From positions 7,260-71,259 of the forward strand of contig JAFZAL010000007.1 in the NCBI GenBank assembly GCA_017557195.1: a stretch of 64,000 bases of DNA, read 5' to 3'. The DNA comes from Thermoguttaceae bacterium. Lineage in GTDB: Bacteria > Planctomycetota > Planctomycetia > Pirellulales > Thermoguttaceae. Position numbers and translations under genes: made by a program. This document shows positions 1,937 to 56,300 of this stretch, one piece after another; position 1 is the stretch's first letter; every line of letters begins with the position of its first letter. Under the pieces are notes generated by a model. The model saw only the letters and a list, made by a program, of their open reading frames with translations. It made no database searches and had not been told where the DNA came from.

Positions 1937-3214
1937 ATGTATTCACAAAATCGTAATCGCACTGTCGTTATCGGCGGCGGCTTGGCGGGACTTAGCGCGG
2001 CGTGGAATGCGGCGCAAGCCGGTCATGATGTCGTTGTGCTGGAACGGTCGCCGTATCTGGGCGGACGGTGCGGGTCGTTTTACGATTTGCCGTCTCTGCG
2101 TTGGCTGGACAACTGTCCGCACTTATTTTTGGACTGTTGTGACGGCGTGAGGGAGTTCTTTACTCAAACGGGGTTGATCGAGTTCTGGAAGCCGGAACGG
2201 GAATTCTACTTTTATCCGCCGGGCAAACCGGCAACGGCGCCGCGAACGTTTAAAGAATCAGACCGGTTACCGGGCATGCTGCGACTGGAACCCGCCTTGA
2301 GGAGTTTGAACTACCTGTCGTGGAAAGAGCGGTTGAGAATCGTCTTTGATATGCTGGCCATTGCGCGTCAAAAGACGTTTGACGGCTCGTTCGGTCAGTG
2401 GCTCGACAAGCGTAAAACGCCGACGTCCGTTCGGACGCTGTTCTATGAGCCGATTGTGATGAGCGCTCTTTCCTGCTCGCTCGACCGTCCATGTTACAAA
2501 ATGGTTCGGAAAGTTTTCGTCTGCTCTTTCTTTGAGGGACGAAACCGATGGAACTGCTCTCTGCCGACCATTCCGCTTCGGGAACTGTTCGACGTCAAAC
2601 TGGCGGCGGCGTTACAAGATCAGGGGGTGGAAATTCGCCGCGGCTGTACGGTCGAGGAACTGGAGCGAGGCAAAAACCGCATTCGCGCCGTAAGACTGTC
2701 AACCGGCGAACGGATTCTTGCCGAGAAATACGTCCTGGCGACGAACTTCTCAACGGCGCAAACGCTCTTTCCTCCGCTTGCTCCGTTAGCGGAATCGTAT
2801 CAGACGGAATCCATTTCCAGCGTTCATTTCTGGACGGATTCGCCGTTTCTTCCCACGCCGCACGGGGTCTTTCCGGAACGGACGATACAGTGGATTTTCT
2901 CCGGCGAGAAAGACGAGCTGGGATACTATCATTGCGGCGTCGTTTCGGGTACGAACAGCTGGCAGGAACGAAAGAACGGGTTCAAATCCCAGGTTCGTCA
3001 GGAGTTGGCGGAACTCAACCCGGAATCGAAAATCCTGAGATTGGAAACAACGCATTGGAAGGACGCCGTTTGCGTTCCGTCGGTTGAATGGACGAAGGCA
3101 AGACAGAGCTGGTTTGAACAAACGACGCTGCCGGAGAATCTTGAACTCGCCGGCGACTGGACGAATCTTAACTGGCCGTCGACGATGGAAGCGGCGATCG
3201 CAATTAGCAATTAG
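1937..3214 (+). CDS. FAD-dependent oxidoreductase of the amine-oxidase / phytoene-desaturase family (HpnE-like hydroxysqualene dehydroxylase candidate)
   Basis: N-terminal Rossmann dinucleotide motif VVIGGGLAGLSAAWNAAQAGHDVVVLE..LGGR. C-terminal LAGDWT....PSTMEAAI, typical of this family. 425 aa. The subfamily assignment is inference only. Confidence 0.75.
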   Translation: MYSQNRNRTVVIGGGLAGLSAAWNAAQAGHDVVVLERSPYLGGRCGSFYDLPSLRWLDNCPHLFLDCCDGVREFFTQTGLIEFWKPEREFYFYPPGKPATAPRTFKESDRLPGMLRLEPALRSLNYLSWKERLRIVFDMLAIARQKTFDGSFGQWLDKRKTPTSVRTLFYEPIVMSALSCSLDRPCYKMVRKVFVCSFFEGRNRWNCSLPTIPLRELFDVKLAAALQDQGVEIRRGCTVEELERGKNRIRAVRLSTGERILAEKYVLATNFSTAQTLFPPLAPLAESYQTESISSVHFWTDSPFLPTPHGVFPERTIQWIFSGEKDELGYYHCGVVSGTNSWQERKNGFKSQVRQELAELNPESKILRLETTHWKDAVCVPSVEWTKARQSWFEQTTLPENLELAGDWTNLNWPSTMEAAIAISN

Positions 3215-10619: not shown

Positions 10620-13004
10620 ATGAAAAAGAATGTCTTCTGGCGAATATTCAGCGCAGCCGCGTTAACGACTATTGTTTGGAGCGCGGCATGTCTGAACGTC
10701 TATGGATTTACGAACAACTCCAATTCCGGAGGAACTCTGCTTGACGTATTTCGCGGACGCGGCAGTTCGTCCAACCCTTCTCCGACAGTCAGCGCGCCAA
10801 CTCCGCCTAACGCCGGTTACGAATCTCCTGTGTTGCCAGCTCCGCAATTGACCAATGTCAATGGGTATGGACAGCCGCAGGGCGTTGTTGAGACGCCTCG
10901 GCAATTCCCCAGTTCACAATACGTTCCGCCAGCAGTCCCAGCGCCGCAGGAACCGGTTCAAAACAAGTGGTCGTTAAAAAGCTGGCTGTCCGGCGCTGCG
11001 CCTGTTCAGCCGCAGCCTCAATATGTTGAACCCGCGCCGCCTCTGACGCCGTCGTATAATCCACCCCATTCCCATGCGAGTCATCCGGTTATGCCCAGTC
11101 ATCCGGTTATGCCCAGCGGGCAGAAAACGCAATATCCTGTTGTTCCGCTGGATTCGGAGGATTTTCGACCTCAGGAAGGCGCGATCTATAACGAAAAAGG
11201 GGAAATGATTTACAACCCCGCAAGCGGGGAACCCATGCCGAATTTCGCCGAGGGCGAGACTCTGCAGGGAAACGTCGATTGGGGTGTAACAGGTAACGAG
11301 AGCATGCCAGACGCGTCAATAATTCCTCCTGCAGCAATTCCACCCGCAGCTATTCCTCCTGCAGCAATTCCTCCCGCTGCAATTCCTCCCGCTGCCAAAG
11401 CCGACGCCGTTCCGAATAACGAATCGGAATCCACCGCCAAGCGGATTATTATGGGACGATCGAGCGCAGGACGTTCTGCGACGCCTGTCAATCAGGAACG
11501 GGTTTACAATCAAACGCCGAGTTCTCCAAGTGGCTCGGTTTATCCAACGCCAGAACCGATTCCCGCTCAAATGCCGGCTAATCCCTACGCTCAGCAGCCG
11601 ACTGTTAGTTCTGGAAATCCTCCTGTTGGAACAGGGAAAGCGATTATCAACGGAAATTCGGGAGCCTCAGCATTTAGCAAAACGTATACGCCAGGTCCGG
11701 TTCGGACAGACGTTCCGGCGGAACCTGTTATGGATATGTCAGGTCCAGATTTGACAGAAGCCTTGCCGCAGGATTCTGCCGTATCGCCGGCGCCGGCTGC
11801 TTCACCGGTAATCGAGGAAATACATAACGATTCGCCGCTGGAAAAACTCTCAGAGAAAAACAACGAAACCCCGGTTTTAGAACCGGTTCCGGAATCCGTT
11901 ACAGAGATTGACATTCCTAAAGAGAAAACAGGGAATAGGGAACAGGGAGTAGGGAATAGCGATTCGCCGAAGACGAATTCAACTCCTCTTGCAACGCGCA
12001 AGTCGCAAATTTCAACTTCCCAAGCTCCATTGATAGTCGAAATCTCCGGTCCTGAAGAAGTCGAGTTTGGCAAGAACGAGATGTTTTCTTTGAGCGTAAT
12101 CAATACGACCGACGCCGTTCGCCGTGACATTGATTTAAGCGTTCATCCAGAAGGATTTGGCGACGATAAAACCGCCAGTTTGACGCTTGAAGAACTGCAG
12201 CCGGGCGAGAAGAAGTCCGTTTATATGAAGCTCAATGCGCGTCAGTACAATAATTTGTCGCTGACGGCTCAGGTTCGTGACGCGTTGGGATTTGAAGCGG
12301 TGAAATCAATCAGCGTCCGCGTGAAAGACGAGTCTGTGAAGATCTCGATTCTGCCTCCTCAGGCGGAGAGCGCGTTCGTCGGACAGCCGACGCAGTACCT
12401 GATTCGAATTGTCAACAAGGGGGCTAAAACCGTTACGCTCAACGCAGTCGCGTTTTTTGGAAACGGCATTGAACCGATTCGAGCGTCCGGCGCGCCCAAT
12501 TCGATTCAAAGCGGTCAGGTTGTCGTCGATACGCCGATTGAACTCAAACAGGGCGAGATGCGCGATTTGAAAATTGTCGCCGTTGCATTCCAGCCGGGCG
12601 TTCATAAAATCCTGGTTCAGCTGTTTGATTCCCGCGGCGCGACGTATGCCGCCAAGGAGTCTTGCGCTTATCGCCAGCGCGAGTTTGACAATAACGATTC
12701 TGAAATCGCGGAAAAAGACGCCCGAATTGAACTCACGCCGGGCAAATCCGAAATCGGCGTCTGGAAACCGGCGGGAGATTCAGGCAGTAGGCAAGAGACA
12801 GTAGGCATGAGTGAGAGTACGCAAGCGACCAACGGGAGCGAATTTCGGCAGACGCGCGGTAGCGCGGATGGGGAGCGGCGCCTCGCCGCCTCGCAACTCG
12901 CAACTCCTGACGCGCCGGCTCAGAACGCCCCTGACGCCGTCCCGCTGACTCAACCGGATCAGGGCCCGCAAGGCGATTTGATTATGCCGATGTTCGCACA
13001 GTAA
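10620..13004 (+). CDS. secreted proline-rich protein with two C-terminal Ig-like (CARDB/DUF11-like) modules
   Basis: Signal peptide MKKNVFWRIFSAAALTTIVWSAA. Pro-rich repeats (HPVMPS x2, AIPPA x5). Two beta-sandwich-like modules (PLIVEISGPEEVEFGKNEMFSLSVINT... and VKISILPPQAESAFVGQPTQYLIRIVNKG...). The last ~75 codons run through repeat-element sequence. Confidence 0.65.
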   Translation: MKKNVFWRIFSAAALTTIVWSAACLNVYGFTNNSNSGGTLLDVFRGRGSSSNPSPTVSAPTPPNAGYESPVLPAPQLTNVNGYGQPQGVVETPRQFPSSQYVPPAVPAPQEPVQNKWSLKSWLSGAAPVQPQPQYVEPAPPLTPSYNPPHSHASHPVMPSHPVMPSGQKTQYPVVPLDSEDFRPQEGAIYNEKGEMIYNPASGEPMPNFAEGETLQGNVDWGVTGNESMPDASIIPPAAIPPAAIPPAAIPPAAIPPAAKADAVPNNESESTAKRIIMGRSSAGRSATPVNQERVYNQTPSSPSGSVYPTPEPIPAQMPANPYAQQPTVSSGNPPVGTGKAIINGNSGASAFSKTYTPGPVRTDVPAEPVMDMSGPDLTEALPQDSAVSPAPAASPVIEEIHNDSPLEKLSEKNNETPVLEPVPESVTEIDIPKEKTGNREQGVGNSDSPKTNSTPLATRKSQISTSQAPLIVEISGPEEVEFGKNEMFSLSVINTTDAVRRDIDLSVHPEGFGDDKTASLTLEELQPGEKKSVYMKLNARQYNNLSLTAQVRDALGFEAVKSISVRVKDESVKISILPPQAESAFVGQPTQYLIRIVNKGAKTVTLNAVAFFGNGIEPIRASGAPNSIQSGQVVVDTPIELKQGEMRDLKIVAVAFQPGVHKILVQLFDSRGATYAAKESCAYRQREFDNNDSEIAEKDARIELTPGKSEIGVWKPAGDSGSRQETVGMSESTQATNGSEFRQTRGSADGERRLAASQLATPDAPAQNAPDAVPLTQPDQGPQGDLIMPMFAQ
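11319..11396 (+). repeat. in-frame 15-nt tandem repeat x5 (AIPPA pentapeptide)
   Basis: Units attcctcctgcagca, attccacccgcagct, attcctcctgcagca, attcctcccgctgca and attcctcccgctgcc, differing by synonymous changes. Confidence 0.9.
11928..12010. repeat. degenerate 7-mer-arm element embedded in frame in a CDS (AGGGAAT arm plus attcgcc..gaattc centre)
   Basis: Sequence is cagggaatagggaacagggagtagggaatagcgattcgccgaagacgaattcaactcctcttgcaacgcgcaagtcgcaa, translated as TGNREQGVGNSDSPKTNSTPLATRKSQ. It resembles the intergenic element at 26340-26428. Confidence 0.6.
12781..12907. repeat. 7-mer-arm element embedded in frame near a CDS 3' end (GCAGTAG left arm, exact core, GCAACTC right arm)
   Basis: Left arm caggcagtaggcaagagacagtaggcatgagtgagag. 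Core ACGCAAGCG at 12819-12827. Right arm ctcgccgcctcgcaactcgcaactcc. Both TAGs in the left arm fall out of frame. Confidence 0.7.
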
Positions 13005-17409: not shown

Positions 17410-17546
17410 GATTAGGCAATAGGCGCGAAGAGCATCCAGTTTCAGGGGGGCGGGTATTACCCGCCAAAAAAATCAACCTTTGATTTTCGCGGACAATGTC
17501 CGCTCCCCAGAAACCTACTGCCTACTGCCTCTTGCCTAATGCCTAT
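17410..17546. repeat. composite element between convergent genes: GCAGTAG-family arms enclosing two short GC hairpins
   Basis: Left arm gattaggcaataggcg. GC hairpins gggcgggtattacccgcc (17448-17465) and gcggacaatgtccgc (17489-17503). Right arm ctactgcctactgcctcttgcctaatgcctatc. Confidence 0.75.
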
Positions 17547-26434: not shown

Positions 26435-28621
26435 ATGAAGTCCGCCGGTTTTCTGTCGACGTTGGGCGTAGGATTATGCGTTGTCGCTTTTTCAGCGTTT
26501 TTCCTTGCCCCAATGTATCAGCCGATGTTCTCAAACCGGCTGACGTTTCTTTGGAGTTGTCTGTTGGCGTCAGACATTTTGAGCTTTAATTGGCTTTTTC
26601 TTCCAGAGGAATGGCGCGCCTCGGAGACGGTCAAGGCGTTTTTCGACAGCTTCAACACGTCGTTTCTTCCGATAAACCGCTGGTCTATTCTGCTCATTGT
26701 TACAATCGAAGCTCTCTGGATTTATTCGCTCGGATCGCTGATATTTCGCTTCTTGAAAAATCCGTTGGAAGAATCTCCGCTGCTGCGATTCTGCTTGACC
26801 TGTTTGACCGGCGCAGCGGCGCTGTCCGCGCTGACGGGTTTTCTCGGCTTGATCGGTTGTCTGCAAAGCTGGCTTTTCTGGACGCTGGCGGCAGGGACGA
26901 TATTGACGCTAGTATGGAAAATTAGGGATGCGGTTTTACTCAAATCGCCTCAGATTAGTTGCGAGTTGCGAGAAGATGGAATGTGTAATTCCGTTCGATT
27001 TTTCCGGGGGCTTACGCACCCCGGCTCGCCCTACTGCCTACTGCCTACTGCCTTAATCGCTTTCTTCTGTCTCCTCGCTGTTCTCCCCGCCATGACGCCG
27101 CCATTTGATTTTGACGTTCGGGAATACCATCTGGAATCGGTCAAGGAATTCTGGCTTTCTGGGCGAATAACTGCGCTGCCCAACAACGCTTACGCCAACA
27201 TGCCCCTGGGAGCGGAAAGCCTCGTTTTGGTTTCAATGGCGCTTTCCGGCGACTGGTTTTTAGGTGCGCTGGCAGGCAAGACGCTTTTAAGTCTGTCCGT
27301 ACCGCTGACAGCGCTGCTTCTTTTCGCTCTTGGCGAGAAATACCTTTCCAAACGCGCTGGACTGATCGCAGCGCTTATTTACGTTTCCGCGCCGTTAATC
27401 ATTCGCAACGCTCAGTTTGGAATGATTGACGACGTCTTGACGATGTACGCCTTGGCAACGGCGGCAGTCCTGTTAGAAATTGTCAATCAACGTTTAACAA
27501 CAGAAACTGATATATCCCCAACTCTCGCAACTCGCAACTCGCAACTCGCAACTTTATTGGGCGCGATGGCGGGAATGGCGTCGGCGATAAAATATCCGGG
27601 CGCGCTTTTTGTAGCCTTGCCGTGCTTTATCGTAACCTTCTGGAAGAGCAGCCGTCTGCGACTCCAGCTCCCTGTTGTAACGTTTCTTCTGACCGCTTTG
27701 CTTATCGGGGGCGTTTGGTATTTGAAGAACGCGATCCTGCTGGGGAACCCGGTTTATCCGCTGTGTTCCAGCCTGTTTGGAAACGAATTTCCCGTTGGCT
27801 TTTCAGCTGAATCGTACGCTCGATGGCAAACCGTCCACGCGCCTCATGGCTGGGCTTGGTCAGCAATATACAAGCCGATTGTCCTTTTCTTCTATTCTTC
27901 CGACGTTGCCAGCCCGCTGTTTCTGCCCGTTTTGGCGTGCTGTATATTGTTTTGGAAACGACTGCCGGATTATGCGCGCTGGTCGCTGATTTACAGCAGT
28001 CTTTTTCTGGTCGGGTGGCATGTAACAACTCACAGAATTGAACGATTCCTGTTGCCCGTCGTTCCGTTTATCGCCTTGGCTGGCGGCGCGGTTTTTGACG
28101 TCATTCTTTCCAACGTTTCCGTCTGGATGGGACGAGTTCTCAAAGGCGTTTTGGCTCTCGGCGCAGCGTATTCCCTCCTGATTTTAGCGTATCCGTTTCT
28201 CGGAGCGTTCGGAACGTTCGATACAATCTCCGAGATGCGGTCGTCTCCCCTGAGACTGTGCGAGGGATTGACGCAGCTTGTTACACTGAGATCCGAAGAA
28301 CTGCTCAAAATGAAGGATTCCGGCGAACGCGTTTTGCTCATCGGCGACGCCGCGGTTTTCGACTGGCCCGTTCCCATTGACTATTCCGTCTGCTTTAATT
28401 CCGACGACTTTATAGATTCTGTTACAAGCAAACTTCAGGGAGACAATCCGCCCAAATTGATCGTTGTCAATTTAAGCGAGATAAACCGATACCAGACTAC
28501 AGAATACGGGTACAGCTCAAAAGTTAAAGCGGCCCTGGAATTGTTGGATAATCCAGACCGCTTTACTCCAATTTATCGTTCAGAATGGATGACGACGACT
28601 GTTTACGAATTGAAACAATAG
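26435..28621 (+). CDS. polytopic membrane protein, GT-C-fold glycosyltransferase-like (ArnT/PMT family-like), carrying in-frame repeat insertions
   Basis: 728 aa with many hydrophobic helices. A DE-type loop motif FDFDVREYH follows a TM helix, as in ArnT/PMT enzymes. Repeat sequence is read through in frame at 26957-27052 and 27521-27553. It may be a fusion of two ancestral ORFs. Confidence 0.6.
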   Translation: MKSAGFLSTLGVGLCVVAFSAFFLAPMYQPMFSNRLTFLWSCLLASDILSFNWLFLPEEWRASETVKAFFDSFNTSFLPINRWSILLIVTIEALWIYSLGSLIFRFLKNPLEESPLLRFCLTCLTGAAALSALTGFLGLIGCLQSWLFWTLAAGTILTLVWKIRDAVLLKSPQISCELREDGMCNSVRFFRGLTHPGSPYCLLPTALIAFFCLLAVLPAMTPPFDFDVREYHLESVKEFWLSGRITALPNNAYANMPLGAESLVLVSMALSGDWFLGALAGKTLLSLSVPLTALLLFALGEKYLSKRAGLIAALIYVSAPLIIRNAQFGMIDDVLTMYALATAAVLLEIVNQRLTTETDISPTLATRNSQLATLLGAMAGMASAIKYPGALFVALPCFIVTFWKSSRLRLQLPVVTFLLTALLIGGVWYLKNAILLGNPVYPLCSSLFGNEFPVGFSAESYARWQTVHAPHGWAWSAIYKPIVLFFYSSDVASPLFLPVLACCILFWKRLPDYARWSLIYSSLFLVGWHVTTHRIERFLLPVVPFIALAGGAVFDVILSNVSVWMGRVLKGVLALGAAYSLLILAYPFLGAFGTFDTISEMRSSPLRLCEGLTQLVTLRSEELLKMKDSGERVLLIGDAAVFDWPVPIDYSVCFNSDDFIDSVTSKLQGDNPPKLIVVNLSEINRYQTTEYGYSSKVKAALELLDNPDRFTPIYRSEWMTTTVYELKQ
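26957..27052. repeat. chimeric 7-mer-arm element embedded in frame in a CDS
   Basis: Left arm agttgcgagttgcgag. GC hairpin ccgggg-gcttacgca-ccccgg (27004-27024). Right arm cctactgcctactgcctactgcc. Translated as [31 protein letters not shown]. Confidence 0.7.
27521..27553. repeat. (GCAACTC)x4 arm embedded in frame in a CDS
   Basis: Sequence actctcgcaactcgcaactcgcaactcgcaact, translated as TLATRNSQLATL. Confidence 0.75.
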
Positions 28622-29216: not shown

Positions 29217-29346
29217 TAAACACGAAAAACACGAAACAAACGAAACTTACGAAAAATTTAAAAAATAATTCTTTCGTGTTTTTCCCGTCCCTTTTCGTAT
29301 ATTTCGTGTTTAAAACTACTGCCTACTGCCTATTGCCTACTGCCTT
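29217..29346. repeat. compound element: ACACGAA / TTCGTGT arms followed by a (CTACTGC)x3 arm
   Basis: Left arm aaacacgaaaaacacgaaacaaacgaaacttacgaaaaa. Right arm ctttcgtgtttttcccgtcccttttcgtatatttcgtgtt. Then ctactgcctactgcctattgcctactgcc, which abuts the purT stop codon (29345-29347). Confidence 0.75.
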
Positions 29347-30532
29347 ATTTCACGTTTCCCAGTTCGAGGTCTTCGCTCATCTTGAAAACGCGGGCGAGGG
29401 CGGCGTCAACGGTTTCGTCTCGAGCCAGCAGAACGCCGACGCGGCGATGTCCGTGGACTTCGCCTTTGCCGAAAATACGCATCGTCGTGTTGGGAGCTTC
29501 GAGGACTTTATCCAGATTGGAGAACGTAACGTCGTCGCTGTCTCCGCGGGCGACAATTGCCTTGGACGCCGACGGGCCGTGGAATGCAATGTTGGGAATG
29601 GGAAGCCCGAGAATGGCGCGGGCGTGGAGCGCGAATTCCGACAGGTCTTGAGAAATCATCGTAACCATGCCTGTGTCGTGGGGTCTGGGGGAAACTTCGC
29701 TGAAAATGACCTTGTCGCCCTTGATGAACATTTCGACGCCGAAAATACCGCGACCGCCCAGCGCGCCGGTGATCTTGCCGGCAATTTCCTGAGCTTTCGC
29801 CTTCGCTTCGTCTGACATGGGCTGCGGCTGCCAGGATTCCTGGTAGTCGCCGTCTACCTGATGATGCCCAATCGGTTCGAGGAACGACGTTCCGCCCGCG
29901 TGACGAACGGTCAGAAGGGTAATTTCGTAATCGAAATCGATAAACCCTTCGACGATGACTTTTCCCGCGCCGGCGCGTCCGCCTTCCTGAGCAATTTGCC
30001 AGCATTTGTCGACGTCGTCCGCCGATTTGCAAACGCTCTGACCGTGTCCGGACGAGGACATAATCGGTTTGATAACGCACGGCGTTCCGATGGCTTCTAC
30101 CGCCTGTTTGAATTCTTCGTAATTGGCGGCGAAACGATACGGGGACGTCGGCAAACCGAGTTCCTCAGCCGCCAGACGGCGAATCCCTTCCCGGTTCATG
30201 GTCAGGAACGCGGCGTTGGCAGTCGGGATAACCGTATACCCTTCTTTTTCCAGTTCAACGAGCGTCGGCGTAGCAATCGCTTCGACTTCCGGAACGATGT
30301 AGTCGGGCTTTTCCTTTTCGATGACTTCGCGCAGCTGTTTGCCGTCGAGCATGTTGATGAAGTAGCTCCGGTGCGCCACCTGCATGCCCGGCGCATTGTC
30401 GTAGCGGTCAACAGCGACAACTTCGACGCCCAAGCGCATCATTTCAATTACAACTTCTTTGCCAAGTTCGCCTGAACCGAGCATCAAAACCTTAACAGCC
30501 GACGGTCTGAGAGCCGTTCCCAATGTAGTCAT
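29345..30532 (-). CDS. purT: formate-dependent phosphoribosylglycinamide formyltransferase (GAR transformylase 2)
   Basis: 395 aa. N-terminus [48 protein letters not shown] plus an ATP-grasp body ([23 protein letters not shown]) are characteristic of PurT. Confidence 0.93.
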
Positions 30533-45292: not shown

Positions 45293-45379
45293 GAGTTGCG
45301 AGTTGCGAGTAACGAGTTGCGAGAAAACGCAAGCGTCCTAGCAACTCCTCTCGCAACTCGCAACTCGCCTCTCGCAACT
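45293..45379. repeat. 7-mer-arm hairpin element (GAGTTGC / GCAACTC arms)
   Basis: Left arm gagttgcgagttgcgagtaacgagttgcgag. Core ACGCAAGCG at 45327-45335. Right arm tagcaactcctctcgcaactcgcaactcgcctctcgcaact. Starts 2 nt after the scpA TGA. Confidence 0.88.
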
Positions 45380-45480: not shown

Positions 45481-46170
45481 ATGGGTCTGTTTGATTTCTG
45501 GCGAAAAAAGGACGCACAGCCGGCAGCGACAGCTGACGGACAGTCGAAATCCGCTTCTTCAGCGTCGGATAAGGGCAAAGCGTCGAAACCGGCGAAGAAG
45601 ACCGCGTCTAAAAAATCGAAGAAAGCCGATCCCGGTCCAGACCCGCTGCAGCTAGCGGTTGACAAAATTGCCACTCGTCCGCAAGGAGAGTACGTCTTAT
45701 ACGATCAGGCGGCTAACCTGTTCCCGCATCGGATTTTAGAACTCGGAATCGACGATGGAGAGCGCATTTCGACCCTGCTTCAGTTTGGAACGCTGGTCGT
45801 TGATCCGGCGGAACTGCTCTATGTCGGCTTGGACTGGTTTGAGGACAGAACGGAGCAGCAACGTCCTGGATTGACGCTCAGCCAGGCGGCAAAACTGTTT
45901 GCCAAATTGGGCGTAAAAGCGAAATTGCAGCCGGGCGACCCACTGACGTCTTTTTTACCGATTGCCAATTCTCTTACGGCGAAAAAGGTGGACTGGGTTA
46001 TGATTTCCAGCGAAATTCGCCCGAAGGTTATGCGTCAGCTTTGGCCTCTGTTCCCGCGAATTCTGAAGCCGGAAACGAGATTCTTTTTGGAAAAAAACGG
46101 CGAATACAAGCTCATCGCGCCGGAAGAAGTTGAACGCATCGCCAAAAAGGCGGAAGATCTGAACAGGTAG
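45481..46170 (+). CDS. hypothetical protein with a Lys/Ser/Ala-rich N-terminus
   Basis: 229-aa ORF. Basic low-complexity N-terminus (KGKASKPAKKTASKKSKKA). The globular remainder has a weak Rossmann/methyltransferase-like ILELGIDDGE segment. The TAG stop lies inside the next repeat. Confidence 0.5.
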   Translation: MGLFDFWRKKDAQPAATADGQSKSASSASDKGKASKPAKKTASKKSKKADPGPDPLQLAVDKIATRPQGEYVLYDQAANLFPHRILELGIDDGERISTLLQFGTLVVDPAELLYVGLDWFEDRTEQQRPGLTLSQAAKLFAKLGVKAKLQPGDPLTSFLPIANSLTAKKVDWVMISSEIRPKVMRQLWPLFPRILKPETRFFLEKNGEYKLIAPEEVERIAKKAEDLNR

Positions 46171-48210: not shown

Positions 48211-48343
48211 AAACTTCTCTCGCTTTTCGACGTTAGATTTTCTATCATCTTGCCTTCAATTGACGTCAATAAAAATAAAAAATCTATAAATATACGTCAA
48301 ATTCGTCTGGACAAAAACTGGAATTTTGGGTAAAATACCGTCC

Positions 48344-49240
48344 ATGTCAGAAGTAAAGTCGAGTATACACGTATCGGTTATGCCCGATGAGGTGTTGGAA
48401 TATATCAATCCTCAGCCGGGTCAGGTCGTCGTTGACGGCACGCTGGGCGGGGCGGGGCACGCGAAAATGATCGCGTCCCGGCTGGTTCCCGGCGGCTGTC
48501 TGATTGGCTTGGATCGAGACGCTGCGCCATTACAGCTGGCGGAAGAAACGCTCAAGGGACTGCCGGTTATTCTGGCGCAGTCCAACTTTTGCGATCTGCC
48601 TGAAACGCTGGAAGAAATCGATGGAATCGATAAAGTCGACGCGATTTTGCTTGACCTGGGACTGTCGAGCGACCAGTTGGCAGACCGTTCCCGCGGGTTC
48701 AGCTTTAATTCCGACGGTCCGCTGGACTTGCGCTTTGACGTCGATCATGGCGAGCCTGCGTGGAAACTGCTCAACCGGCTGTCCCAGCAGACGCTGGCAG
48801 ACCTGATTTATCAGTACGGCGAGGAACGTTTCAGCCGTCGAATCGCTCAAAAGATTGTCGAAACCAGACGTTCCAATCCGATTAAAACCGCCGCTCAACT
48901 GGCGGAACTGGTTCGTTCCTGCGTTCCGGTCGAACGCAACAGAAAAAACGCCATTGATCCCGCAACGCGAACGTTTCAGGCGCTTCGCATTGCCGTCAAT
49001 GATGAATTGAAGTCGTTGGAAATCGCGCTCAAACGGTTTCCAGACGTCCTTAAACCGGGGGGAATCCTGGCGATTATCAGCTTTCATTCCCTGGAAGACC
49101 GACGCGTTAAAGAGGCGTTTCGCAATGACGATCGCTACGAAGTTTTAACGCCCAAAGCCTTGACAGCGTCCCCGGAAGAAATTGAAGTCAATCCGCGCAG
49201 CCGATCCGCAAAACTGCGAGTCGCAAGAAGAAATGCGTAA
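48344..49240 (+). CDS. rsmH: 16S rRNA (cytosine1402-N4)-methyltransferase
   Basis: Motifs HVSVMPDEVLEYINPQPGQVVVDGTLGGAGHA, DLGLSSDQL, ALRIAVNDEL, ISFHSLEDRRVK and ARSAKLRVARR are all characteristic of RsmH/MraW. I prefer the ATG at 48344 over the upstream TTG. Confidence 0.93.
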   Translation: MSEVKSSIHVSVMPDEVLEYINPQPGQVVVDGTLGGAGHAKMIASRLVPGGCLIGLDRDAAPLQLAEETLKGLPVILAQSNFCDLPETLEEIDGIDKVDAILLDLGLSSDQLADRSRGFSFNSDGPLDLRFDVDHGEPAWKLLNRLSQQTLADLIYQYGEERFSRRIAQKIVETRRSNPIKTAAQLAELVRSCVPVERNRKNAIDPATRTFQALRIAVNDELKSLEIALKRFPDVLKPGGILAIISFHSLEDRRVKEAFRNDDRYEVLTPKALTASPEEIEVNPRSRSAKLRVARRNA

Positions 49241-49385
49241 TTCGTAATGCGTAATTCGTAATTACGCTTCGCGTTCATCGTAGTTTTATTGTGACGCTTG
49301 CGTCAATTCCGCATTCAAATTCCGCATTACAAATTTTTGAGGCGCTTTGCGTCAATTACGCATTACGCATTAAACATTACGAATT
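49233..49385. repeat. dimeric 7-mer-arm element (GCGTAAT / ATTACGC and ATTCCGC arms, two cores)
   Basis: Left arm atgcgtaattcgtaatgcgtaattcgtaatt contains the rsmH TAA (49238-49240). Cores CGCTTGCGT (49295-49303) and cgctttgcgt (49343-49352). Arms caattccgcattcaaattccgcattac and aattacgcattacgcattaaacattacgaatt. Confidence 0.85.
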
Positions 49386-49393
49386 AAAGTACC

Positions 49394-52300
49394 ATGAGCC
49401 GAAGAAATCGCAATAATCGATACAATTCTCGCAACCGAAACAAGTGGGATGAAGGTTACGACGACGAGTACTTTGACGATGACGATCAGCTGGAGTCTGA
49501 AGACGACGATTCTTCAGAGGATCAGGACGAGTACGAAGACGAAGAGTACGAAGAGTACGATTCCGAGGAGGAAGACGACGAGTCGGACGATGAACAGTAC
49601 GAAGACGAAGAGTACGACGAGGACGACGAAGAGGAGTATGACGAAGACGAGTCTGAGGACGAGGAAGAATACGACGAGGACGACGAAGAAGAGTATGATG
49701 AAGACGAGTCTGACGAGGAAGAGGTAGACGAAGAAGACGAAGAGGAAGAAGAGGAATCCGATGACGACGAAGACGACGAATTAGACAGCGAAATCGAAGC
49801 GGCGGCGGAATCGACGGCAAAGAAAACTATTGGGAATTCCGATCTGCTGAGCAAGCTTCGCGGTCAGATGCGTCCGCAGCTTAAAGAGGATTCGTCCGAG
49901 TCAAATAAAGACGTCGAAATTAACGTCTCGCCGCTGTCGCTGTTTGGTCAGCCGATTTCTCAAAACAATAAAAAGAGCAATACGTCCAGCGCTATGCCTC
50001 AGCACGCCAATGCGAGAATTGTTCAAACTGCAACAGTTGGTTCCAAACAGCCGCAGTCCGCGCCAAGCGCGTCTGTTCAGAAGTCTGGCAGCGGTCGGGT
50101 TATTACTGCTCAGTCTCAAAATGGGGCAAGCGTTACCTCTGTTCAGCCTCGAGATTTAGAAGCGGAAAAAGCGGAAGCGGATAAAAAGCAAAAAGAAAAG
50201 GAGCGTCTGGAACAGGAACAAAAGACGAAAGAAGAAAAAAGCGCTCGCATCCTCGATAAATTTAAACGAAAGAAGTCCTCTGGCGAATCCGCTGTGAGTA
50301 AAACCAAAGCGGGCGCTTCCTGGGTATGGTCAAAAATGTCGTCTGGCGCCGCCTGGATTGGGGCGGGAATTGCCGCCTGCTTTGTCTGGATGTTTTGGTC
50401 TAAACCCAAGCAGGCGTGGCAAACATGGCGAATTTTCAACGCTTCCTGGTGGTCTGGACTTGGCTCTGGCGCCTGGAACGCCGTTAAGAAACCGTTTGTC
50501 AAAAAGCCCGTCGAGACCGCTCAAACGGAAGGCGCGGAAGCTGTTCCGTCCGGGTCCGCTGATGCGTCTGTCAGCGCTGTAACATCAGAACCGGCAACCG
50601 TCAGAAAGAGGAAATCCCGAAAGAAGAATGTGGATATTTGGGACGCCGACGCGACTCCTGGCGCCGAAGCTGGAACGGACGCTTTTGCCAGCAAGGAACC
50701 GGATAGCCGCAGAAGACTCTATTTCTCTTTGAGTTCAATTGGCGCCGCGGCAATTATGTTCCTGCTGGTTCTTCCTTCAATGCTTAATGGAAGCAAAAAG
50801 AGCGATGAAAACGCAGTCGCCCTTAACGGTCAGGAAACCGTTTCTGACGTTACAAATCAGGATGTAAACAAACCGGTTTCTGAAACTGTCCCGGCGTCTG
50901 AGAACGGATTGGAGAATAACAATCAGGGAATTGTAAACAACAACGAAACGTCTCGCGTACGCGCGTTTAATTCGCCTAACGGCGACGTTCAGACAGGGTA
51001 TCCCGCTGGTAGAACGCCTTCGACCAATGGGAACAATTTCAATTCGCCTCGCGGAGACTCCCGAATGGGGTATCAAGCTGGCGGCGCTCCTTCGACCAAC
51101 GGGAACAATTTTAACTCGCCTCGCGGAGACTCGCGGACGGGATATCCAGCAGGAAACGCGCCTATGACCAACGGGAACAATTTCAATTCGCCTCGCGGAG
51201 ATTCGCGGACGGGATATCCAGCAGGAAACGCGCCTTCGAATTACAACGCGACTTCCTATGACCCGCGCTCAACTCGCCAATCGCCGACGGCGCCGCTTGA
51301 GATTGACGCTCCGGAAGTAACAACTCCTGAAATTGCGGCTCCTGAAGTTTCAGATTTGGGTTTGGACGCTCCCGAACTTCCCTCGCCGGAAGCGACGGCT
51401 CCTGAAGTAACGGACTTGGGCTTGGACGATTCCGAACCTTCCGTTCCTGAATTAACGACTCCGGAAGTTACGGATTTAGGTTTGGACGATATGGAACTGC
51501 CCGCCCCGGAAGATACCGCCTCGGAAGTTACAGCTCCGGAAGTTACGGATTTGGGTTTGGACGATTCCTTGCCGACTCCGGAACTTCCGAGCGACGATGA
51601 GGTCCCTGTTCCAGACCTGTCCGATTCGGAATTGGAAGCTCCGGCTGTTGATATAGAAGTTCCGGAAATTCCCGATGAAACGACGCAGGCAGGCGAAGAT
51701 CCGTTGAATGACGCAGCGCCTGAAGTCCCGGACTTGGACAATTCGGAAGTAACAGCTCCCGAAGAAACGGATATTGCGCCGACGCCGGATTTGACGTCGT
51801 CCGTTGAACCGTCCAGCGACGCTGATTTACCAACGCCTGAAACCGACGTTCCGGAGTTGTCTATGCCTGAATTGTCTGATCCTCAACCAGTTGATTCCAA
51901 TCTGGAAGAAACGCCGACAGTTCCAGAGCCGGATGCGTTGGAAACGGGAATTGCGTCCCAGCTGACAGAGCCTGAGCCAATTCCTGAAACGCCGTTGACT
52001 CCGGAAGAGAGTTTGCCAAACGACTCGCAGCTTGCCGCATCTCCAACGGAAACGTCTCCCGCGGATTCGTCCGTAGAGTTGGGAGCGCCTGGGCCTTTGG
52101 TTTCCTCAGCAAACGAAAACGCCGCTGACGTTCAGACGCAGACGGCTGCCAACGTCAGTCCGAGCGCTGTAAATAATGAGCCTTTGACGAACTCTGGCTA
52201 CGGGACGAGCGAATACAACAACAGTTATGCGAACAATTACAACAACGTCCCGGAATACAGTCCGACGTATGTCAACACCGGCTCGTATACGGTTCAGCCT

Positions 52301-52696
52301 AATGACAGCTTCTGGACGATTGCCAAGCGCGTATACGGCAGCGGAGAATACGCCAGAGCGCTGGCGCAGTATAACAGTTCTCTCGTCAGTCCGCAGTCGC
52401 TGACAGTGTCAGTTCAAATCAAGACGCCGCCAGTGGAAACGTTGGAACGGCAGTTCCCGGGATTGTGCCCCTCTCGCGGTTTGGCGTCTTCTGCGGCGTC
52501 GACAGCGAACGCGGCTCCGGCGGGAACTCGCGTGTATATTGTTGACCAGGAAGAAAGCGTGATGGAAATCGCCCGCCGCGAGTTGGGAAGCATCCTGTAC
52601 TGTTCTCAGGTTTACGCTCTTAACCAGGAACAGCTTTCCGGCAGCGTTGACCGCGTTAAACCCGGCGTTCGACTGCTGCTGCCCGTTCAAAAATAA
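49394..52696 (+). CDS. giant membrane-associated protein: hyper-acidic N-terminus, TM segments, repeat-rich region and two C-terminal LysM domains
   Basis: 1100 aa. About 115 residues are almost only D/E/Y/S. TM-like segments (AAWIGAGIAACFVWMFW, IGAAAIMFLLVLPSML). Four 24-aa repeats and PEVTDLGLDD-type repeats. LysM-like YTVQPNDSFWTIAKRVYGSGEYARALAQYN and VYIVDQEESVMEIARRELG...VKPGVRLLLP. Confidence 0.7.
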   Translation: MSRRNRNNRYNSRNRNKWDEGYDDEYFDDDDQLESEDDDSSEDQDEYEDEEYEEYDSEEEDDESDDEQYEDEEYDEDDEEEYDEDESEDEEEYDEDDEEEYDEDESDEEEVDEEDEEEEEESDDDEDDELDSEIEAAAESTAKKTIGNSDLLSKLRGQMRPQLKEDSSESNKDVEINVSPLSLFGQPISQNNKKSNTSSAMPQHANARIVQTATVGSKQPQSAPSASVQKSGSGRVITAQSQNGASVTSVQPRDLEAEKAEADKKQKEKERLEQEQKTKEEKSARILDKFKRKKSSGESAVSKTKAGASWVWSKMSSGAAWIGAGIAACFVWMFWSKPKQAWQTWRIFNASWWSGLGSGAWNAVKKPFVKKPVETAQTEGAEAVPSGSADASVSAVTSEPATVRKRKSRKKNVDIWDADATPGAEAGTDAFASKEPDSRRRLYFSLSSIGAAAIMFLLVLPSMLNGSKKSDENAVALNGQETVSDVTNQDVNKPVSETVPASENGLENNNQGIVNNNETSRVRAFNSPNGDVQTGYPAGRTPSTNGNNFNSPRGDSRMGYQAGGAPSTNGNNFNSPRGDSRTGYPAGNAPMTNGNNFNSPRGDSRTGYPAGNAPSNYNATSYDPRSTRQSPTAPLEIDAPEVTTPEIAAPEVSDLGLDAPELPSPEATAPEVTDLGLDDSEPSVPELTTPEVTDLGLDDMELPAPEDTASEVTAPEVTDLGLDDSLPTPELPSDDEVPVPDLSDSELEAPAVDIEVPEIPDETTQAGEDPLNDAAPEVPDLDNSEVTAPEETDIAPTPDLTSSVEPSSDADLPTPETDVPELSMPELSDPQPVDSNLEETPTVPEPDALETGIASQLTEPEPIPETPLTPEESLPNDSQLAASPTETSPADSSVELGAPGPLVSSANENAADVQTQTAANVSPSAVNNEPLTNSGYGTSEYNNSYANNYNNVPEYSPTYVNTGSYTVQPNDSFWTIAKRVYGSGEYARALAQYNSSLVSPQSLTVSVQIKTPPVETLERQFPGLCPSRGLASSAASTANAAPAGTRVYIVDQEESVMEIARRELGSILYCSQVYALNQEQLSGSVDRVKPGVRLLLPVQK
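50966..51240 (+). repeat. in-frame 72-nt tandem repeat, about 4 copies (FNSPRGDSRTGYPAGNAP.TNGNN)
   Basis: Units start at 50966, 51038, 51110 and 51182. Units 2-4 contain an RGD tripeptide; unit 1 has NGD. Confidence 0.9.
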
Positions 52697-52774
52697 CAGG
52701 AAATACGACTGAATGTTACAAGTAATTTAACCGTCGTTTTTCCTTCCCTCCCTTTTTTATCGAAAGGATAGTTT

Positions 52775-54877
52775 GTGAGTAAAAAAGTATTTAATCCATA
52801 TCGGGATTTGCTCGATATTCCATCGTTGAAAGACGAAAATCCGTCAGATTATCAGCTTCTGGGAATCGAAGATTTCGAGAGCGACTCGGGAAAGATTGCC
52901 GCCGCTCATGAAAAACGTTCGCAGCGAATAGCGGATTTGTATCAGCTTATTACGAGAATGTCTCAGCAGATAGACGAAGCCCGCGATCGCATTTCCGATT
53001 CTCAGAAAAAAGAAGAATACGACAATCTTTTAAGAAAAACCGGCCGCGCCGGCGTGGCTCATCTTGGAAAAGGCGGCTCGTTTGCCCTGCTGTTTTCTTT
53101 TGTTTTGAGTATTTTTATTGTAGTGGTTTCGACGTTCTACATCTATCCGATGGTTGTTCCAACTCCGCCGGAGAACTATGGCGATTCCGTTACAACTCTG
53201 CCGGAATATAAAGAATCCCAAACCCAAAAGGAAATCGACATCCTTAAAGTTCAGCAGGAAGACATTTCAACCATGGACGTCAATTTCAACCTCCCGATTG
53301 ACGTTGACGCCGATTCTTCAGTAGATCTCCTTGACGTTCCAGCTGCAGACATTCCTGGCGAAGAAACGTCCATTGACGACCTGTCTGTTACAGACATCCC
53401 ATTGAATGACGACGCGCAGGCGGCTGAACAGCCCGCTGAACTGGAAGTTCCCGATATTGAAGAACCCGCGCCAGAACAACCAGCGGTAGAAGAACCCGCG
53501 GCAGAGGAACCAGCGGCAGAGGAACCAGCAGAACCAGAAGTTCCGGCTTTGGAAGCTCCTGCGATAGAAGAACCTGCGGTTGAAGAGCCTGCAGTCGAGG
53601 AACCTGCCGCGCCGGAAGAACCGTCTTTACCTGAAACGCCGGCAGTTGATCAACCAACTGAGCCTGAAGAACCCGTTGATGAACAGCCTCAGACGCCGGA
53701 AGTTCCAGACGTTCCCGAGGTCGAGCAGTCTGAAGTCGAATCTCCTGCGGAGCCTGAAGAACAAACCATCGAAAGACCTTCTGAAGAATCGCCGGAGGTT
53801 CTTGTTGATCCTGAAATTCCGGACGCGCCCTCGCTTCCTGGCGTTCCCGACAGGGTCGGTTCCCAAGTGGACGTGGGGAGCGCCGAAACCGGCTCTTTCG
53901 GAGGCATAACCTCGTCCACTCGCCCGCGCGGTTTCGCGCCCGATTCTGACACGCCGACTGTTCCGAAGTTGTCAGATAGAGATAACGCCGGGATTCCAGA
54001 ACTGCCGCCGCTAGAGGAAGTTGCGGATTCTGGTCCTCCCGAAGCGCCTCAACCGCCGGTTATTCCAGAGTTGGCGTCTGTTGATGAACCGGTTGTAACG
54101 CATGATGGAGGGCGGGTATTACCCGCCGAAAAGTTGCGAGAAGCGAGTAACGAGTGGCGAGAAAACGCAAGCGTTACACAAAATCCTCTCGCAACTCGCA
54201 ACTCGCAACTCGCAACTCGCCCGTACGGCGTTGTACTGGAAGACGTTGACAAAGTTGATAAGCTGGATCAGTTTGTTCAGATGGGGCAGAAAGCTCGCAC
54301 TGACGAGGATTTTGCTCAGTTGCTCGTTTCCGCTCGGCAGGCGGAAGAAGAATTGATGAAAGAAAAACAGTTCCCAAAAGCGCAGCAAATTGCTGACGTT
54401 GTTTACGCTGCTTGCGCTCGTTTGGCTGACAAATCGTATCGCGCCGAGGCGTATCAGCACAAAGAAATCGTTTCTCGGCGGGCTGCATGGTGGGACGCCG
54501 CCCGCGCGGCTGAAGCAAAAATGCAGTCAAACGGAAGCGTTACTCCTGCTGAGGCGAATATTGTCGCCCGATGGAAAATTGAAGTAGAAAACGATTGGGA
54601 AACCGGGCTCAAATACCTGGCTTTTAGCGATAACGAACAGATTCAGCTCGCGGTGAAAAGAGATCTCGCCGCCAATCCGGAGAACGTTCGTCATTGTCTG
54701 GTTGTTGCGAATGACTGGTGGAATCTCTCTCAAGATCCGGTTCCGATGCAAAAACAGTATAGACAACGCGCCAGCATGTGGTATTCCAAAGCTCTGCCGT
54801 CAATTGCGGACAAACAGATTCGAACTCTCGTAGAAAAACGAATCTCGATAGTGGATCAGGGCTATCCAAAACACTGA
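52775..54877 (+). CDS. membrane-anchored protein with N-terminal J-like domain lacking HPD, acidic Pro/Glu/Ala linker and helical C-terminal domain; carries a complete repeat element in frame
   Basis: GTG start with aagga 7 nt upstream. N-terminus NPYRDLLDIP...SDYQLLGIEDFESDSGKIAAAHEKRSQ. TM segment FALLFSFVLSIFIVVVSTFYIY. EEPA(V/A)EEPA repeats. Same architecture as the 24126 gene. Confidence 0.68.
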   Translation: MSKKVFNPYRDLLDIPSLKDENPSDYQLLGIEDFESDSGKIAAAHEKRSQRIADLYQLITRMSQQIDEARDRISDSQKKEEYDNLLRKTGRAGVAHLGKGGSFALLFSFVLSIFIVVVSTFYIYPMVVPTPPENYGDSVTTLPEYKESQTQKEIDILKVQQEDISTMDVNFNLPIDVDADSSVDLLDVPAADIPGEETSIDDLSVTDIPLNDDAQAAEQPAELEVPDIEEPAPEQPAVEEPAAEEPAAEEPAEPEVPALEAPAIEEPAVEEPAVEEPAAPEEPSLPETPAVDQPTEPEEPVDEQPQTPEVPDVPEVEQSEVESPAEPEEQTIERPSEESPEVLVDPEIPDAPSLPGVPDRVGSQVDVGSAETGSFGGITSSTRPRGFAPDSDTPTVPKLSDRDNAGIPELPPLEEVADSGPPEAPQPPVIPELASVDEPVVTHDGGRVLPAEKLREASNEWRENASVTQNPLATRNSQLATRPYGVVLEDVDKVDKLDQFVQMGQKARTDEDFAQLLVSARQAEEELMKEKQFPKAQQIADVVYAACARLADKSYRAEAYQHKEIVSRRAAWWDAARAAEAKMQSNGSVTPAEANIVARWKIEVENDWETGLKYLAFSDNEQIQLAVKRDLAANPENVRHCLVVANDWWNLSQDPVPMQKQYRQRASMWYSKALPSIADKQIRTLVEKRISIVDQGYPKH
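54110..54220. repeat. complete composite element (GC hairpin, GAGTTGC arm, exact core, (GCAACTC)x4 arm) embedded in frame in a CDS
   Basis: GC hairpin gggcgggtattacccgcc (54110-54127) is identical to 17448-17465. Left arm agttgcgagaagcgagtaacgagtggcgag. Core ACGCAAGCG at 54165-54173. Right arm ctctcgcaactcgcaactcgcaactcgcaactcgc. Translated as GRVLPAEKLREASNEWRENASVTQNPLATRNSQLATR. Confidence 0.85.
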
Positions 54878-54977: not shown

Positions 54978-55012
54978 ATTTTGCGTATTTCGTGTTAAAA
55001 TAACTTTTTATC

Positions 55013-56084: not shown

Positions 56085-56300
56085 ATCTTTTTAAACACGA
56101 AAAACACGAAGCGCATAGTGCATAGTGCATAGTGCATAGTGCATAGTGCATAGTGCATAGTGCATAGTGCATAGTGCATAGTGCATAGTGCATAGTGTAT
56201 AGTGTATAGTGCATAGTGCATAGTGCATAGGACGCAAGCGCTCATCTCACTAAGCGCTAACCACTTACCACTAACCACTTACCACTATTTCGTGTTAAAA
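56085..56300. repeat. chimeric element with a 17-unit GTGCATA microsatellite as left arm, exact core, and ACTTACC-family right arm
   Basis: Starts aaacacgaaaaacacgaa. About 17 units of (GTGCATA) span 56111-56230, two of them GTGTATA. Core ACGCAAGCG at 56232-56240. Right arm ctcactaagcgctaaccacttaccactaaccacttaccact. Ends tatttcgtgttaaaa. Confidence 0.9.

Follow-up and report, generated by a model that had tools for sequence, protein, structure and literature searches.

An in-frame copy of a dispersed, heptamer-armed hairpin repeat in a conserved protein gene of ruminant-gut Thermoguttaceae

How can a conserved protein gene carry a complete palindromic repeat and still be read as a single open reading frame (ORF)? 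This question was raised by a 64,000-nucleotide stretch of contig JAFZAL010000007.1 (assembly GCA_017557195.1), hereafter the window, whose sequence matches a Thermoguttaceae metagenome-assembled genome (MAG). A first-pass annotation of the window had proposed that an element of about 110 bases at positions 54110-54220 lies complete and in frame inside ORF 52775..54877. This proposal held: the ORF is open across the whole element (translation GRVLPAEKLREASNEWRENASVTQNPLATRNSQLATRPYG), and the predicted peptide spanning 54110-54220 includes ...SVTQNPLATRNSQLATRPYGVVLEDVDK. The element belongs to a family of repeats that fills most 3' and operon-internal intergenic spacers in a ruminant-gut clade of Thermoguttaceae. 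We consider it probable that this is a selfish or neutral, modular family of hairpin repeats with heptamer-array arms, and that its copies in coding sequence (CDS) are the survivors of a filter on reading frame, stop codons, and site.

The element consists of a left arm of degenerate GAGTTGC-type heptamers (AAGTTGC GAGAAGC GAGTAAC GAGTGGC GAG), a core, and a regular right arm of CTCGCAA units. Its left arm could be aligned to the arms of intergenic copies, and the arm-variant pattern GAGTAAC-GAGTKGC-GAGAAAACGCAAGCG was common to the CDS copy and intergenic copies. The core sequence GAGAAAACGCAAGCG matched the intergenic copy at 45318 exactly, and the core motif ACGCAAGCG was common to most elements in the window. 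Mean column identity was 88% in a four-sequence alignment that set the window CDS copy and its counterpart at the orthologous locus L001 beside two intergenic copies (45289 and 35036). The doubled unit (GCAACTC)2, with at most one mismatch, occurred 13 times in the window versus 0.01 expected. The left and right arms of the CDS copy pair into a long RNA hairpin (-41.6 kcal/mol, z = -6.0). The CDS copy is a genuine member of a dispersed, hairpin-forming repeat family.

An 18-nt GC hairpin, GGGCGGGTATTACCCGCC, stands at the upstream end of this interval and had been counted as part of the element. Its reported identity to positions 17448-17465 stood (two sites on the plus strand of the window versus 0 expected by chance), but it is separate from the GAGTTGC element, being the first stem-loop of a two-hairpin unit that we call type B. 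A full type B unit (GGGACGGGTATTACCCGCC..GCGGACAATGTCCGCTCCCCGGAAACATTACCCGCC) lies in frame at the same place in the L001 gene; the window retains only the first stem-loop, joined at a repeated ATTACCCGCC. Derivation of the window hairpin from the L001 unit by simple deletion between two ATTACCCGCC repeats was considered and rejected. The interval, at 56 nt, is not divisible by 3, and the junction on the upstream side differs as well, so this was not one simple event.

Members of the family are abundant and share a common layout. Tandem Repeats Finder (TRF) gave about 37 period-7 arrays in the window, in about 22 elements, nearly all in intergenic spacers, where they often abut or supply the stop codon of the upstream gene. 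Across 296 kb from the clade, 206 of the 308 TRF rows with a period of up to 10 had period 7, and any other period accounted for at most 67. Typically, a heptamer array on the left is followed by a short core and then, on the right, by an array of the reverse-complement heptamer. The heptamer can be any of several interchangeable types (AGTGCAT, AGTGGTA, AGGGAAT, AGGCAGT, AATGCGT/AATTCGG, and GAGTTGC), and the cores are interchangeable too: the commonest contains ACGCAAGCG, and the others are a AATTCGCC-NNNG-GCGAATT hairpin, the type B unit with its two hairpins, and a long core termed type D. Arms may be chimeric, and elements are nested inside one another. Type B serves as an alternative core between heptamer arms, and further examples were found in L001 (3476-3545 and 4296-4350) and L018 (3228-3300). 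Five folded elements with complementary arms, from intergenic and coding DNA, gave RNA hairpins of -34 to -51 kcal/mol (z = -5.5 to -8.5); with one intergenic AGTGCAT copy included, z ranged from -3.7 to -8.5.

The family also has a narrow known range. An exact search for one core variant in 185,579 species genomes (one per species) returned 24 matches, all in six MAGs labeled ruminant-gut Thermoguttaceae or 'uncultured planctomycete'. Rfam models applied to the whole window gave only a tRNA at 1707-1779 above the gathering threshold, and the repeats had no match.

Two further observations concern the spacers. Period 9 was the second commonest tandem period (67 TRF rows). Arrays of the 9-mer AAACACGAA and its complement TTCGTGTTT form an outer inverted layer around heptamer elements and fill the whole spacer at some loci (window 56093-56110, 56288-56300, 29218-29256, and 54985-55000; L001 4350-4500; L006 6171-6358). 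Separately, many genes end in or directly against the first heptamer units at 3212-3214, 26340-26342, 46168-46170, 49238-49240, 29345-29347, and other places. With TAG or TAA at unit junctions, stops occur in all three frames reading inward from either side, and elements may thus have trimmed or redefined C-termini.

The host protein of the 54110-54220 element begins with a helical part that includes one membrane helix, continues into a disordered acidic and Pro-rich linker about 330 residues long, and ends in an all-helical domain. The gene stands in a conserved order (host, 2-Hacid_dh, PfkB, FtsH). In an AlphaFold2 model built from a 14-sequence alignment, the predicted local distance difference test score stayed below 50 over residues 163-492 and was about 90 in the helical domain (residues 495-694). 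The element peptide occupies residues 446-485, at the end of the low-confidence linker and directly before the helical domain, in agreement with its earlier placement between these two regions. The element site is thus in a linker predicted to be disordered and tolerant.

Both sides of the element appear to be constrained in the same frame. The ratio of nonsynonymous to synonymous differences (pN/pS) relative to the close orthologues L001, L002, L003, and L006 lay between 0.16 and 0.22 in the N-terminal part and between 0.11 and 0.14 in the C-terminal domain; relative to the more distant L004, it was 0.25-0.30. In every orthologue, the two parts follow each other without an intervening stop codon, and 14 of 14 are single ORFs despite inserts of unequal length. 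The exact 700-aa protein was found on six contigs from independent assemblies, and two of these contigs, when compared, showed 0 nt differences over the 2103-nt CDS. The identity of the CDS across independent assemblies excludes an assembly artifact as the source of the open frame.

We compared 14 host orthologues (38-89% identity), and seven syntenic loci at the DNA level. All 14 were co-linear over the first 200 residues and again from GVVLEDVD through the C-terminal domain. Between PPVIPEL and GVVLEDVD lies a variable stretch whose content differs by lineage and which is in frame at every locus. L002 and L006 have a native, Pro-rich linker with no repeat. L001 has the same element as the window together with the full type B unit. 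L003 has an AGGGAAT/ACTCCCT element with a AATTCGCC core, and L004 has an AGGCAGT arm and an AATTCGG/CATTCCG element with a ACGCAAGCG core. In L007, an AGGCAGT arm is followed by a AATTCGCC core and a CTCGCAA arm; L005 is similar to L007, lacks the core hairpin, and has a repeat of about 95 nt of an unrelated kind (type C) nested in its right CTCGCAA arm. The element at the host linker is thus lineage-specific, as the first-pass annotation had anticipated for element-encoded peptides.

This site has also changed recently. Flanking gene sequence in L004, L005, and L007 is 97-100% identical, yet the three loci have three different arrangements, indicating that the site was re-modeled within strain-level time. 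The spacers between host and 2-Hacid_dh and between 2-Hacid_dh and PfkB hold a different element in almost every locus; those upstream of host and between PfkB and FtsH are conserved and have no repeats. Strains with an identical host CDS differed in the downstream spacer, with 16 (window 56113-56230), 13 (L038), and 18 (L039) GCATAGT units, copy numbers that come from short-read assemblies and may be inexact. Heptamers thus slip in intergenic arrays. The copy number of the CDS array was the same in the window, L038, L039, and L001.

Stop codons offer one account of which units persist in genes. As had been noted from the sequence, tandem GAGTTGC/GCAACTC has no stop codon on either strand. The same is true of AATTCGG, AATGCGG, and AATTCCG, and of about 50% of random heptamers. 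Most other unit types carry a TAG or TAA where units join, confined to one strand (left-arm orientation), and complete elements built of them are closed in six of six frames. The complete 54110-54220 element is open in three of six frames and GAGTTGC-type copies in one to three, and AGTGCAT-type and AGGGAAT-type intergenic copies are closed in six of six. Units that are stop-free on both strands made up 19 of 36 coding arrays (those inside long open frames) versus 18 of 166 non-coding arrays (odds ratio 9.2, syntenic loci included). When only independent loci were counted, the numbers were 4 of 13 and 11 of 130, respectively (odds ratio 4.8, p = 0.03). Coding arrays are thus enriched in stop-free units.

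The stronger claim that only the six-frame stop-free unit type forms complete insertions failed. Complete in-frame elements with TAG-bearing arms were found in L003 (AGGGAAT/ACTCCCT) and in L005 and L007 (AGGCAGT with CTCGCAA), and another stop-free type, AATTCGG, is in frame in L004. The independent loci L009, L024, L030, and L031 also carry in-frame elements of types other than GAGTTGC. TAG-bearing arms are in fact common in coding DNA; in those of the AGGGAAT and AGGCAGT types, CAG, GAG, or CAA stands where a TAG would fall in frame. The coding form met most often is a chimeric AGGCAGT-core-CTCGCAA element whose arms cannot pair with each other.

Further in-frame copies predicted in two other proteins of the window were found at all four sites (Table 1). 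Two of these lie in the GT-C-like ORF 26435..28621. The arms of the 26957-27053 element are non-complementary, and its RNA fold is weak (z = -2.5). At the site of the lone arm, 27524-27553, orthologues have RLAASQLA or a multi-element insert of about 50 aa, and the distant orthologue P0051 has no arm. Element peptides differ among GT-C-like orthologues at both sites, the 26957-27053 loop included. The other two lie in the Pro-rich ORF 10620..13004. The 11927-12010 element does not fold into a long hairpin (z = 0.2), and both sites of this ORF vary by lineage. The peptide TQATNGSExRQTRGSADGERRLAASQLAT occurs at the C-terminal site (12781-12907) in the window Pro-rich protein and at the middle site in P0079 and P0088, and a similar peptide occurs in the GT-C loop of P0042, P0044, and P0045. 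Intergenic copies of the long type D core were found in L035 and L037. By these comparisons, the in-frame copies in the GT-C-like and Pro-rich proteins are lineage-specific, and they lie in loops and linkers. A phmmer search of 1.84 billion representative proteins with the 40-aa element peptide of the host protein returned one match, P0092, an unrelated protein with PLATRHS repeats; the search was uninformative because the peptide is too short.

An alternative suggested earlier for the 26957-27052 element, fusion of two ancestral ORFs, was rejected. The N-terminal membrane part and the GT-C part are in one ORF in eleven orthologues, one of them at 39% identity, and the short versions of 507-509 aa (P0046, P0048, and P0050) begin at most 250 nt from a contig end. 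The L033 contig begins inside a GAGTTGC arm (1-110). In L032 (1-250), unrelated, AT-rich, non-coding-like DNA stands upstream of a CTACTGC arm, where the N-terminal domain would be expected. Metagenome contigs of the clade break at or near repeats, giving truncated calls of the GT-C-like gene.

Table 1. Positions in the window of the host gene, the parts of its in-frame element, and other repeat copies
Feature	Position	Strand	Basis and remarks
Host CDS, 700 aa	52775..54877	+	ORF list; 14 co-linear orthologues; conserved synteny
18-nt GC hairpin	54110..54127	+	read as GRVLPA
Left arm, degenerate GAGTTGC-type heptamers	54132..54161	+	TRF period 7, 4.3 copies, 73% matches
Core, GAGAAAACGCAAGCG + spacer TTACACAAAATCCT	54159..54187	+	sequence comparison
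Right arm, (CTCGCAA)x4.7, read as PLATRNSQLATR	54188..54220	+	TRF 100% matches
Type C repeat, about 95 nt, in frame in host CDS, peptide DRVGSQVDVGSAETGSFGGITSSTRPRGFAP	53849..53945	+	CCGACAGGGTCGGTTCCCAAKTGGA...CGTCCACTCGCCCG; unrelated to the heptamer element
Closest intergenic GAGTTGC-type copy (reference copy)	45293..45379	+	alignment; hairpin -50.7 kcal/mol, z = -8.5
Complete intergenic type B unit (GGGGGGCGGGTATTACCCGCC ... GCGGACAATGTCCGCTCCCCRGAAAC)	17448..17515	+	nested between AGGCAAT and CCTACTG arms
Chimeric element in GT-C-like ORF	26957..27053	+	GAGTTGC arm, two small hairpins, CCTACTG arm in stop-free orientation
Lone (CTCGCAA)x4.3 arm in GT-C-like ORF, read as PTLATRNSQLATL	27524..27553	+	TRF
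Chimeric element in Pro-rich ORF	11927..12010	+	AGGGAAT-type arm (in-frame TAG to CAG), small core, degenerate CTCGCAA arm
Chimeric element in Pro-rich ORF	12781..12907	+	AGGCAGT arm (in-frame TAG replaced), type D core starting ACGCAAGCGACCAACGGGAGCG, CTCGCAA arm

The host gene carries a second in-frame repeat, of type C. It is present once in the window protein and twice in P0002 and P0006, as a tandem duplication in these two, and is absent from P0003, P0004, P0005, and P0007. Further copies were found in L001 (3176), L005 (1089, 1128, and 4258), L018 (rc248), and L024 (rc1590). The region 48326-54877 encodes, in order, rsmH/mraW (PF01795), an 1100-aa protein, and the host gene. The 1100-aa protein is extremely acidic at its N-terminus, contains coding repeats of 72 nt and 60 nt, and ends in what by eye resembles a LysM domain. 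Neither it nor the host protein had a Pfam match; for the host protein, Pfam gave sub-threshold matches only.

The reading that we prefer, a modular repeat family whose coding copies have passed a filter, would work as follows. The dispersed repeat would be non-autonomous, and its elements would occasionally land in coding DNA. A copy there would persist only if the net change in length kept the reading frame, if it brought no in-frame stop, and if the site were a disordered linker or loop. The second condition would be easy for GAGTTGC and AATTCGG units, stop-free on both strands, and TAG-bearing units would need short arrays or variant units. We infer these conditions from the pattern of surviving copies. 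Once occupied, a site would keep changing by heptamer slippage (shown only for intergenic arrays), by nested insertion, and by replacement or deletion of modules, and such ongoing turnover would leave near-identical strains with different element peptides, always in frame. The encoded peptide (...NPLATRNSQLATR...) would most likely serve only as a spacer, and the repeats are probably neutral, fast-changing filler in coding sequence.

Several points weigh against this reading. No transposase or RAYT (the tyrosine transposase associated with repetitive extragenic palindromic [REP] sequences) was found by Pfam among the ORFs of the window, which are ordinary chromosomal genes. No clean target-site duplication was seen, and the one empty/filled pair is ambiguous. 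This candidate pair, in orthologues of ORF 49394..52696, sets L007 (about 1010) beside L004 (1003-1091), which has an AGGCAGT-AATTCGCC-CTCGCAA element; similar flanks of 11-12 nt (GRRCGCCKGAY) on both sides, in a repetitive region of the protein, may be a target-site duplication or the protein's own repeats. The element has taken the place of about 138 nt of native linker in the window, L001, and L003 and is no simple interruption there, which indicates that more than simple insertion took place. Translation through the element is something that we infer from conservation. Finally, the identity of the element between the window and L001 is not predicted by pure neutral drift. The two copies match at 96 of 96 aligned nt (by reading the sequences, the identical tract extends for about 108 nt), and this identity stops at the element edges. 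The adjacent linker is only 84.5% identical, and the flanking domains show a synonymous divergence of about 0.2. An element this conserved amid diverged flanks requires recent gene conversion or transfer, or selection on its sequence or hairpin.

The search for a source of such conversion was negative. Neither the window nor the compared loci, L001 excepted, yielded a donor copy with the TTACACAAAATCC spacer variant, and TTACACAAAATCCT was likewise present only in the window element and L001. An exact search of Joint Genome Institute (JGI) metagenomes for the CDS-specific core gave 0 matches; the shorter arm-plus-core pattern gave four copies there, intergenic only.

A bolder reading goes further. 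An active copying or recombination system, acting on single-stranded hairpins or by gene conversion, would target existing arrays and move or overwrite modules cassette by cassette in strain-level time, the coding linkers of envelope proteins included. The element would be kept homogeneous by conversion, as the 96/96 identity compared with a 7-15% difference in the flanks suggests. We regard such a system as unlikely, with some chance of being real. If it is, bacteria would have a novel type of mobile or diversifying repeat system, one able to produce variants of protein linkers.

The same identity, set against the linker and synonymous divergence around it, could also mean that the in-CDS hairpin is kept for a function at the RNA or DNA level, such as ribosome pausing, RNase processing or mRNA stability, or transcription attenuation, and has been domesticated. 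The stability of the CDS hairpin, near that of the intergenic copies, would fit, as would the strong hairpins of the in-frame copies in L003 and L004 (z = -6.9 and -5.5). However, L002 and L006 lack the element in a gene that is otherwise conserved, other lineages carry unrelated elements, and the in-frame copies at 11927-12010 and 26957-27053 form no comparable long hairpin. Near-identical strains also differ grossly at the site, which turnover explains better, and we give a functional hairpin only a slim chance.

Slimmer still, in our judgment, is the chance that the repeats are adaptive, hypervariable cassettes, in which module replacement diversifies exposed linkers of envelope proteins, for example against phage or host recognition, with frame preservation built in. 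The three arrangements behind nearly identical flanks would be expected of such cassettes, and so would the re-use of hot spots in three envelope-type proteins (the membrane-anchored host protein, the GT-C membrane enzyme, and the secreted Pro-rich protein) and the fact that every variant seen is in frame. Yet the neighboring non-coding spacers show the same turnover, which makes it a property of the repeats and not of coding sites, and in-frame survival is also what purifying selection leaves. No reverse transcriptase, recombinase, or like machinery was found in the window by Pfam, and the surface exposure of the linkers, like their membrane topology, is presumed in this reading.

It is very improbable that the element is a contingency locus in which gain or loss of single 7-nt units switches the C-terminal domain on and off by phase variation. 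The right arm is a perfect array of 4.7 heptamers inside a CDS, the family's intergenic arrays do vary in copy number between otherwise identical strains, and heptanucleotide repeats are described as phase-variation tracts in Haemophilus (PMC8262952). The CDS array is short, though, its copy number is constant across the four loci compared, and every one of the 14 orthologues is in frame. That the in-frame element reflects repeat mis-assembly, two real ORFs, or a decaying gene can be dismissed almost entirely: clade assemblies do break at repeats and one gene caller gave a short GT-C product beginning just after an element (P0046), but the CDS is the same on six independently assembled contigs, and L001, which comes from a different sample and lineage, carries the element too. 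Sequencing reads are longer than the element, purifying selection acts on the downstream domain in the same frame, and the two halves have no stop codon between them.

The family can be compared with three groups of known repeats. Rickettsia palindromic elements (RPEs) are small palindromic repeats that occur between genes and in frame in unrelated protein genes, where the lineage-specific peptides are tolerated by the fold; they are elements of about 150 bp in defined families, each with one conserved peptide (PMC10969869). The Thermoguttaceae elements are similar in that a palindromic repeat is present in frame as a lineage-specific addition, here in at least three window proteins and several in related loci. 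They differ in being modular, with interchangeable heptamer arrays and cores, nested and chimeric, and in showing turnover at the same site between near-identical strains. The phylum is also different, a relation in sequence is not known, and, judged by host range and by the description of RPEs, they are not members of an RPE family.

In construction, the closer parallel is with the short tandemly repeated repetitive (STRR) sequences of cyanobacteria, tandem 7-bp intergenic units that can form hairpins and for which a role in transcript stability has been proposed (PMC2670836). The period-7 tandem arrays described here are likewise intergenic and hairpin-forming. Elhai et al., in Genome Research in 2008, reportedly described small dispersed repeats (SDR), which are very small hairpin elements that lie within tandem heptamer repeats and show nested insertions. 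Our small hairpin cores inside inverted heptamer arrays, mutually nested, resemble that arrangement. Unlike STRRs, the elements occur in Thermoguttaceae (Planctomycetota) and not in filamentous cyanobacteria, their unit sequences differ, and their arms are regularly inverted around a core. To our knowledge, STRRs have not been described as having frequent in-frame copies in coding sequence.

Abundant short palindromic repeats that lie in intergenic DNA at the 3' ends of genes and form stable hairpins are also reminiscent of REP sequences and bacterial interspersed mosaic elements (BIMEs), and of Correia, enterobacterial repetitive intergenic consensus (ERIC), and BOX elements, of the miniature inverted-repeat transposable element (MITE) kind. 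Some MITEs make in-frame fusions when they are intragenic (PMC10969869). Tandem-heptamer arms of several interchangeable types are a feature of the present family and not of REPs or MITEs. The arms here are inverted repeats, and neither a RAYT nor a parent insertion sequence was found in the window. A literature search pairing Planctomycetes with heptanucleotide repeats returned no paper, and we found no description of such repeats in Planctomycetota. The family thus works like RPEs and is built like STRRs, and by sequence or host it is a member of neither.

These results have practical consequences, since the repeats break assemblies, truncate gene calls, and put spurious low-complexity peptides into protein databases. 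In combining heptamer arrays with a core, the family is akin to the unexplained cyanobacterial STRRs and SDRs, which hints at a common mechanism. The family is also a second clear case, this one outside Rickettsia, of palindromic repeats that are routinely tolerated in frame, in a barely studied clade of uncultured gut planctomycetes. Filled, differently filled, and empty alleles stand side by side in this clade, so that the rules of tolerance (frame, stops, and disorder) and the rate of turnover are directly measurable.

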